Of a stretch of 54,238 bases of DNA, positions 25,592-25,673 are shown piece after piece. Below the pieces are notes generated by a model, which did not search any database, had not been told where the DNA came from, and saw only the letters and a list, made by a program, of their open reading frames with translations. Position 1 is the stretch's first letter; every line of letters begins with the position of its first letter. The stretch lies in the IMG/VR virus record IMGVR_UViG_2541047842_000005; one strand, written 5' to 3'. The stretch is from a virus (Duplodnaviria > Heunggongvirae > Uroviricota > Caudoviricetes). A program made the position numbers and the translations under genes.

Positions 25592-25620
25592 TTGTAGGGC
25601 GTAAACAAACAGATTAAAAT
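25592..25620 (+). promoter_or_regulatory. late promoter candidate (PR-prime analogue)
   Basis: TTGTAG, 17-nt spacer, TAAAAT; about 70 nt upstream of the holin ATG and about 30 nt upstream of a terminator hairpin. Confidence 0.4.
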
Positions 25621-25648
25621 ATTTCCTAACAATGCGAAATTGTAATTA

Positions 25649-25673
25649 CCCGGCCCCGCGCCGGGTTTTTGCT
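25649..25673 (+). terminator. rho-independent terminator (tR-prime analogue) upstream of the lysis genes
   Basis: CCCGGC-CCCGC-GCCGGG hairpin followed by TTTTTGCTTTGTT. Confidence 0.5.

Follow-up and report, generated by a model that had tools for sequence, protein, structure and literature searches.

In the textbook arrangement of lambda-type late control, the gene of the antiterminator Q is followed by an adjacent PR' transcription unit, and a sequence resembling a -10 hexamer, located where the transcript begins, serves as the sigma-dependent pause element where Q proteins of the lambda family load onto RNA polymerase (PMC9388147). The Q-binding element of lambda sits between the -35 and -10 hexamers (PMC9388147), and phi80 is annotated likewise. 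Given as -10 hexamer, following spacer and pause element, the late promoters read TAAATT, TGACTC and AACGAT in lambda and P22; TAGATT, CATCTC and TAACGCT in phi80; TAATTT, TATCCC and AACGAT in HK225; TATCAT, AACCC and TAACAGT in Bp96115; TATAGT, CCTA and TAACACT in Eho49; and TAAATA, TTGTTC and TAACGAT in Brookers. We also gathered 60 distinct lambdoid loci with a Q-protein profile, in most of which the promoter lies within ~70 nt of the Q stop codon. A strict pattern of a -10-like hexamer, N4-8, AACNNT and a terminator was found in 40 of the 60, at 15–67 nt downstream of the Q stop codon. Inspection by eye shows much the same order of elements in most of the other 20, where AATGAT often takes the place of AACNNT.

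The accessible part of the report on the mEpimmI coliphages characterizes them as temperate, Nus-dependent, "non-lambdoid" siphoviruses and describes an N-like antiterminator, Gp17, together with three nut sites (PMC11893012). The experimental work on mEp021 presented there concerns Gp17 and not Q, and a Q-like protein of the mEp021 group is mentioned only in general terms (PMC11893012, accessible part). The accessible literature on the mEpimmI group, as far as we could see, describes neither a late promoter nor a pause element.

The DNA stretch analyzed here (the window, 54,238 nucleotides) is a prophage of this group, the relatives of coliphage mEp021. The region studied is 86–92% identical to the mEpimmI coliphages mEp554, mEp044, mEp010, mEp013, mEp515, mEp021 and MagusPhagus, and the segment 25408–25900 is 100% identical to prophages in three Escherichia coli genome records, two of them apparently from the same genome. 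We compared 49 related loci and, beside them, seven isolated phages; 44 of the loci were collected via the holin protein alone and are thus unbiased as to the DNA upstream. Conservation of alignment columns was computed over 36 distinct sequences and the distances from Q to the site over 38 distinct mEpimmI loci. In more distant relatives of the holin, from Xenorhabdus and other hosts, the DNA upstream is unrelated, and they were uninformative on the unit.

The features of the locus are collected in Table 1. The first-pass annotation had described a promoter of the form TTGTAG-17 nt-TAAAAT, a hairpin with a T-tract, a ribosome-binding sequence and a holin gene, and we recovered each of them in the same place. 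It had overlooked TAACAAT, the key diagnostic element, which is placed seven bases after the -10 hexamer at the predicted transcription start (~25627–25628). The terminator scan gives the hairpin as ACCCGGC-CCCGC-GCCGGGT (25648–25666) with seven pairs, six of them G-C, directly before the T5 tract, and the RNA fold of 25627–25676 has a predicted energy of -18.2 kcal/mol (z = -3.0). The ribosome-binding sequence GGAGG follows at 25679–25683 and the holin ATG at 25691; the Pfam matches bear out the holin assignment, the gene being of the HP1 type and followed by genes for lysozyme and an Rz-like spanin. A search for known RNA families at the unit returned a match to the rnk leader, which at 23.7 bits (E 0.087) is far below the gathering score of 55 and was taken as chance.

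Table 1. Positions of the late unit, the Q gene and the intervening block in the window
Feature	Coordinates	Strand	Basis or remark
Q antiterminator gene, lambda Q family, 242 aa	18160..18888	+	Pfam PF03589, PDB 7UBM/7UBN, tblastn
Block of ~25 small accessory ORFs, hypervariable among relatives	18885..25584	+	ORF list
IS200 insertion, Y1 transposase and 5' UTR RNA element	22704..23408	+	Rfam STnc490, Pfam Y1_Tnp
-35-like hexamer TTGTAG, weak (3/6)	25592..25597	+	Sequence
A-rich conserved spacer AAACAAACAGAT	25603..25614	+	Candidate Q-binding element by position only
-10 hexamer TAAAAT (5/6)	25615..25620	+	Invariant in 49/49 loci and 7 isolated phages
-10-like TAACAAT at predicted start	25627..25633	+	Candidate sigma70-dependent pause element
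Intrinsic terminator, tR'-like	25648..25671	+	Stem 25648–25654 / 25660–25666, 5-nt loop, T5
First late genes: holin 25691–25891, lysozyme 25892–26383, Rz-like spanin 26371–26841	25691..26841	+	Pfam PF16080, PF00959, PF03245

In form and position, the candidate pause element of the window matches those of Bp96115, Eho49 and Brookers and of the annotated or characterized lambda, P22 and phi80 late promoters, lying 5–7 nt after the -10 hexamer with a terminator 20–50 nt further on; all the named lambdoid phages, Eho49 and Brookers included, likewise have an intrinsic terminator a few tens of bases downstream. The likeness to the lambda PR'-qut-tR' unit extends to the family of the Q protein, the order of -10 hexamer, 6–7 nt and pause element (AACGAT in lambda, AACAAT in the window), and an intrinsic terminator before the holin gene with the late operon downstream. 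On the other hand, lambda Q ends ~50 nt before a strong -35 hexamer, TTGACT, whereas the window Q ends 6.7 kb upstream of a weak one. The terminated RNA (the 6S RNA unit) is ~194 nt in lambda but predicted to be ~44 nt here, and the TTGACT -35-like element found just 5' of the pause in lambda is replaced by TTTCCT, a variable sequence, in the window. A short terminated leader is also found at P22 P-late (PR')/t-late, where the terminator starts at about +31, compared with about +22 in the window. P22 also has its holin and endolysin after the terminator and, in the gene 23 protein, a Q of the lambda family, but gene 23 directly adjoins the promoter, and the promoter and qut are near-identical to those of lambda, unlike those of the window.

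Further parallels come from phi80 pR' with its gp17 (Q) and from cassettes of the HK225/Bp96115 type, in which Q has four zinc motifs as in the window. The pause elements of phi80, Bp96115 and Eho49 begin with T, as TAACAAT does, and Bp96115 shares with the window CCTAACA-N-T and a downstream GAAAT. These cassettes differ from the window in their good -35 hexamers (TTGCAT, TTGCAA, TTTACT), a trait of the lambdoid relatives throughout, and in their spacers, where Q-binding elements would lie and which are unrelated to that of the window. The window spacer AAACAAAYRGAT likewise shows no sequence similarity to the Q-binding elements of lambda or phi80.

Judged by its two hexamers alone, the promoter would not stand out. 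Together they match the consensus at 8 of 12 positions, so the site falls below the threshold of our promoter scan (9/12) and is unlisted there; there is no TG extended -10 at the unit, promoter-like sites in the region are no commoner than in shuffled sequences, and the hexamer pair by itself is not more than expected by chance. The composite arrangement is more than chance: a search of both strands of the 54-kb window for a -10-like hexamer, N5-7, AACNNT and a terminator within 70 nt gave a single match, that at the unit, compared with a mean of 0.125 per random sequence. A 28-nt core motif (25612–25639) is also single in the window, with 0 expected by chance. These counts bear on the reading that the hexamers lie beside a real terminator by accident, with the true Q target at another place, such as immediately downstream of Q in the manner of lambda. 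The insignificance of the hexamer match would agree with this, as would TAAACT-N7-AACGAT at 18893–18911, five bases after the Q stop codon; the invariance of the 25612–25639 motif in all relatives and its uniqueness in the window speak against it, and we regard such a coincidence as highly improbable. Assessed as a lambda-like PR' in its own right, the 18893 site was rejected: it lies inside the next ORF, lacks both a usable -35 hexamer and a terminator, and does not occur in mEp021 or in seven other distinct relatives, which have a different gene downstream. Its pause-like hexamer is identical to that of lambda, which we judge to be chance, or possibly a relic.

We found the pattern GATTAAAATA-N5-TAACAATGCGAAA exactly once in each of the 49 loci and seven isolated phages. 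Across the 36 distinct sequences, the -10 block, the pause block and the six-base stem arms (25649–25654 and 25660–25665) are 100% invariant, and TAACAAT is accompanied by an invariant GCGAAA in all relatives examined. By contrast, invariance is limited to two of the five positions between the -10 hexamer and the pause element, one of the five loop positions and 24% of the third-codon positions of the holin gene. It is exactly the -10 hexamer, the pause element and the terminator stem that are under purifying selection. The stem is paired in all relatives, with one A-U to G-U change and no compensatory change, so that the support for the hairpin comes from its invariant stem as opposed to its variable loop. 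Within the spacer 25603–25614, AAACAA and GAT are invariant in the 36 sequences and 25609–25611 vary.

Family-wide homology starts at ~25603, immediately 5' of the -10 block, and the DNA upstream is a hypervariable accessory region whose last ORF differs among relatives. While the -10 hexamer of the first-pass annotation proved invariant, the -35 hexamer it named is not conserved. Many relatives have TTGTGG, and a large group, the isolated phage MagusPhagus among them, has TCGCGC, a 2/6 match; T25592 and G25594 are the only invariant positions. At window positions 25587–25602 we observed two sharply distinct variants, GCCGTATTTGTRG... and RCCATAATCGCGCAT... (also in loci L002, L004, L017, L023, L167 and others), with a recombination boundary at ~25603. 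Neither the Q allele nor the kind of ORF that closes the accessory block is linked to the variant.

The Q protein itself occurs in the mEpimmI group as two alleles of 240 aa (mEp021; locus L001, 6579–7298) and 242 aa (the window), ~85% identical. They diverge mostly in the first inserted zinc motif, which in mEp021 reads CMECGGYK, without the final glycine; their helix-turn-helix regions are near-identical, consistent with an invariant target site. We asked if the variants at the -35 position, TTGTRG and TCGCGC, co-vary with the 242-aa and 240-aa alleles, but the counts (12 and 15 against 6 and 5) showed no tracking. Because the variants do not follow the Q alleles, the variable upstream segment is probably not the determinant of Q specificity. 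If there is a Q-binding element, the conserved spacer is the candidate by its position, although it resembles no known element.

The poor conservation of the -35 hexamer, set against two invariant -10-like elements in tandem, raises the question of whether a promoter is needed at all. The site could be a promoter-independent qut site: a polymerase elongating through the early operon would pick up sigma70, or keep it, at TAAAAT or TAACAAT, pause there and be modified by Q. There are reports of sigma70 engaging elongation complexes in trans. The unit also ends a continuous block of same-strand ORFs that begins at the Q stop codon; since a viable relative does without the -35 hexamer, which is therefore dispensable, and a continuous early operon ends at the site, Q might load on elongating polymerases there. 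Loading of this kind has no known precedent for Q, however, and all 60 lambdoid relatives have a recognizable -35/-10 promoter beside the pause element. The invariant T25592 and G25594 suggest a residual -35, and the IS200 insertion and other hairpins upstream would cut the traffic from the early operon. We therefore hold this reading to be quite improbable. In a milder form, the promoter might have little or no -35 hexamer and need DNA-bound Q for recruitment as well as antitermination.

Of the unit, the hairpin was already known: it is an annotated terminator of mEp021 and of sister phages. The homologue of the window hairpin is annotated as TERM_5 in mEp021, a phage of the same group and gene order in which the flanks differ by few bases, and as ARNold terminators in mEp010, mEp013, mEp044 and mEp515. 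A terminator "t5" of mEp021 is reported as experimentally demonstrated within the Gp17/nut framework (PMC11893012, accessible part); we infer that this is TERM_5. Another proposal is a terminator without a promoter: the hairpin would shield the late genes from the long early rightward operon, polymerases modified by Gp17 at nutR1/nutR2 would reach them, and the conserved block beside the hairpin would have a different role, for instance in RNA processing or stability or in the control of holin translation. The weak and variable -35 hexamer is in keeping with this, as are the N-like system and three nut sites demonstrated for mEp021 and the demonstration of "t5" in that context (PMC11893012, as far as accessible), where read-through by Gp17 may be how the terminator was demonstrated. 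A boxA of the nutR2 type is found upstream on the same strand (16487–16501), and N-modified polymerase probably reads through the hairpin too, so the two routes are not mutually exclusive. What the proposal leaves unexplained is the invariant -10 hexamer and the -10-like heptamer at a lambda-like spacing, and it leaves Q without a loading site. Nor does the unit resemble a nut site. There is no boxA of the GCTCTTTAA type, as in the mEp021 nut sites, at the unit, and 25622–25626, where it would lie, varies. The sole small hairpin, a boxB candidate of the form ACAAT-GCGAA-ATTGT (25629–25643), is disrupted at the central pair in 8 of the 15 distinct sequences, and there is no compensating change. 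We thus consider a terminator without a promoter unlikely, if the least so of the alternatives.

Matches to the boxA-like sequence GCTCTTTAAAAATCC were found in the window at 7990–8004 (minus strand), 9011–9025 (plus) and 16487–16501 (plus) only, with 0, 2 and 0 mismatches, respectively, and 0.26 expected. The sites at 7990 and 16487 match the nutL and nutR2 located in mEp021. The copy at 9011 lies inside the repressor gene (LexA family), at least in the annotation of E. coli MS 21-1.

That the upstream protein is a genuine Q supports reading the unit as a late promoter with a pause. The first-pass annotation had called 18160–18888 a Q-like candidate with four CxxCxGxG motifs, and the assignment can be made firmer. 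The motifs are present, at residues 117, 138, 151 and 177, and the protein matches Pfam PF03589 with 110 bits. Residues 1–114 and 150–240 align with residues 1–114 and 117–207 of lambda Q (PDB 7UBM/7UBN, E 1.5e-37), the alignment to 7UBM spanning the RNA-exit-channel segment at the N terminus and the helix-turn-helix body at the C terminus, and in tblastn the protein shares ~34% identity with the Q proteins of lambda and phi80 and with P22 gp23, across 99% of its length. Relative to lambda Q, which has two of the CxxCxGxG motifs, its zinc-ribbon "arm" holds a 35-residue insert. The four-motif arm is common, being carried by most members of the Q family including those of phi80, HK225 and Bp96115, and it is lambda and P22 that have the short-arm forms. 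Mutations at G39, L58 and T206 of lambda Q alter its function (PMC9388147), and the window Q keeps all three residues. The gene comes after ninG and rusA, as in lambdoid phages. As PF03589, the two structures, the sequence identity and the four-motif arm agree, the protein is an ordinary full-length Q of the lambda family.

The distance of 6.7 kb between Q and the late unit, which the first-pass annotation had seen as a displacement calling for action at a distance or for another regulator, is real but not peculiar to the window. From the Q stop codon to the -10 hexamer it ranges over 1.9–6.7 kb in the 38 distinct mEpimmI loci, with a median of 5.5 kb and a value of 1.9 kb in mEp021, and the separation is thus a trait of the whole group. 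Nor does it call for action at a distance: as a diffusible protein, Q reaches the site and loads there, and the gap is therefore no mechanistic problem. The suggestion that another small protein of the block could be the true late regulator found no backing, as none of the 20 ORFs scanned against PHROGs, out of ~25 in the block, gave a candidate; their matches are to families of unknown function, except for one weak secondary match to a membrane-protein (moron) family.

The intervening block consists of continuous same-strand ORFs from the Q stop codon, which the first of them overlaps, to the late unit. IS200 accounts for 0.7 kb of the gap in the window, with an STnc490 match of 146 bits at 22714–22837 and a Y1_Tnp match in the ORF 22796–23305. 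The element is missing from the IMG/VR locus L020, whose compared flanks are 100% and 99.99% identical to those of the window; as the locus is otherwise identical over these flanks, the insertion is recent. The terminal hairpin of IS200 (23387–23405) is scored as a terminator in either direction and might exert polarity on the ORFs at 23455–25584. In E. coli MS 21-1, which is identical to the window over the searched 25408–25900, the coordinates of the accessory-block genes nevertheless differ and no IS200 transposase is annotated in the block. The Q gene has thus been uncoupled from its cassette by a hypervariable block of accessory genes, which is a matter of gene arrangement and not of mechanism.

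Taking these lines together, we think it probable that 25592–25671 is a late regulatory unit that works like lambda PR'-qut-tR', and as such it would be a new member of the lambda-type PR'-pause-tR' cassettes. What the analysis shows is which protein Q is, where the elements lie and how they are spaced, that they are selectively conserved and how the terminator folds; from this we infer the activity of the promoter, the pause, the position of Q binding and the dependence on Q. RNA polymerase with sigma70 would start ~7 nt after TAAAAT, near 25627–25628, and region 2 of sigma would re-bind the -10-like TAACAAT in the first transcribed bases, giving a promoter-proximal pause. Without Q, the polymerase would end at the hairpin and T-tract, releasing an RNA of ~44 nt. 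Q itself would be made from the early rightward operon in dependence on the N-like Gp17 and, once accumulated, bind the DNA just upstream of the pause, probably at the conserved spacer AAACAAACAGAT. It would then load onto the paused polymerase and make it resistant to the hairpin and to the later terminators at 35535 and 37853, so that the genes for lysis, packaging, head and tail would be switched on. Read-through under Q would be predicted to depend on TAACAAT and AAACAAAC. The first-pass annotation proposed that the promoter yields a short terminated RNA as long as no antiterminator acts; the comparative evidence agrees with this, promoter activity and Q dependence being its predicted parts.

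Two strong plus-strand terminators lie inside the structural operon, at 35535–35555 (nine pairs, T9) and 37853–37868. With terminators inside the late region, the expression of the tail genes needs a processive antiterminator. The first of the two directly follows the major capsid gene and corresponds to TERM_7 of mEp021, and the second comes after the tail-tube gene. In the same part of the genome, PGAP annotates the MS 21-1 counterpart of 38603–39647 (minus strand, tail region) as "type VI secretion system-associated protein TagO", which may be a moron, and that of 30499–31869, a gene in the portal position, as "anti-CBASS protein Acb1 family", which may be a misannotation.

The literature on the mEpimmI group, to the extent accessible, covers only the N-like early antitermination, and the description of the promoter and pause is new in relation to it; beyond the arrangement, the proposed mechanism is that of the textbooks. 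Where stx genes and morons of lambdoid phages sit behind the late promoter, the hypervariable accessory block of the mEpimmI phages sits in the early unit and is co-transcribed with Q. According to old reports, lambda Q acts preferentially in cis, and the natural separation of 2–7 kb between Q and its site, repeated over dozens of phages, could be used to test this preference. For the mEpimmI group as a whole, which is common in the human gut, the analysis settles where the late operon is predicted to start and which site Q is likely to act on.
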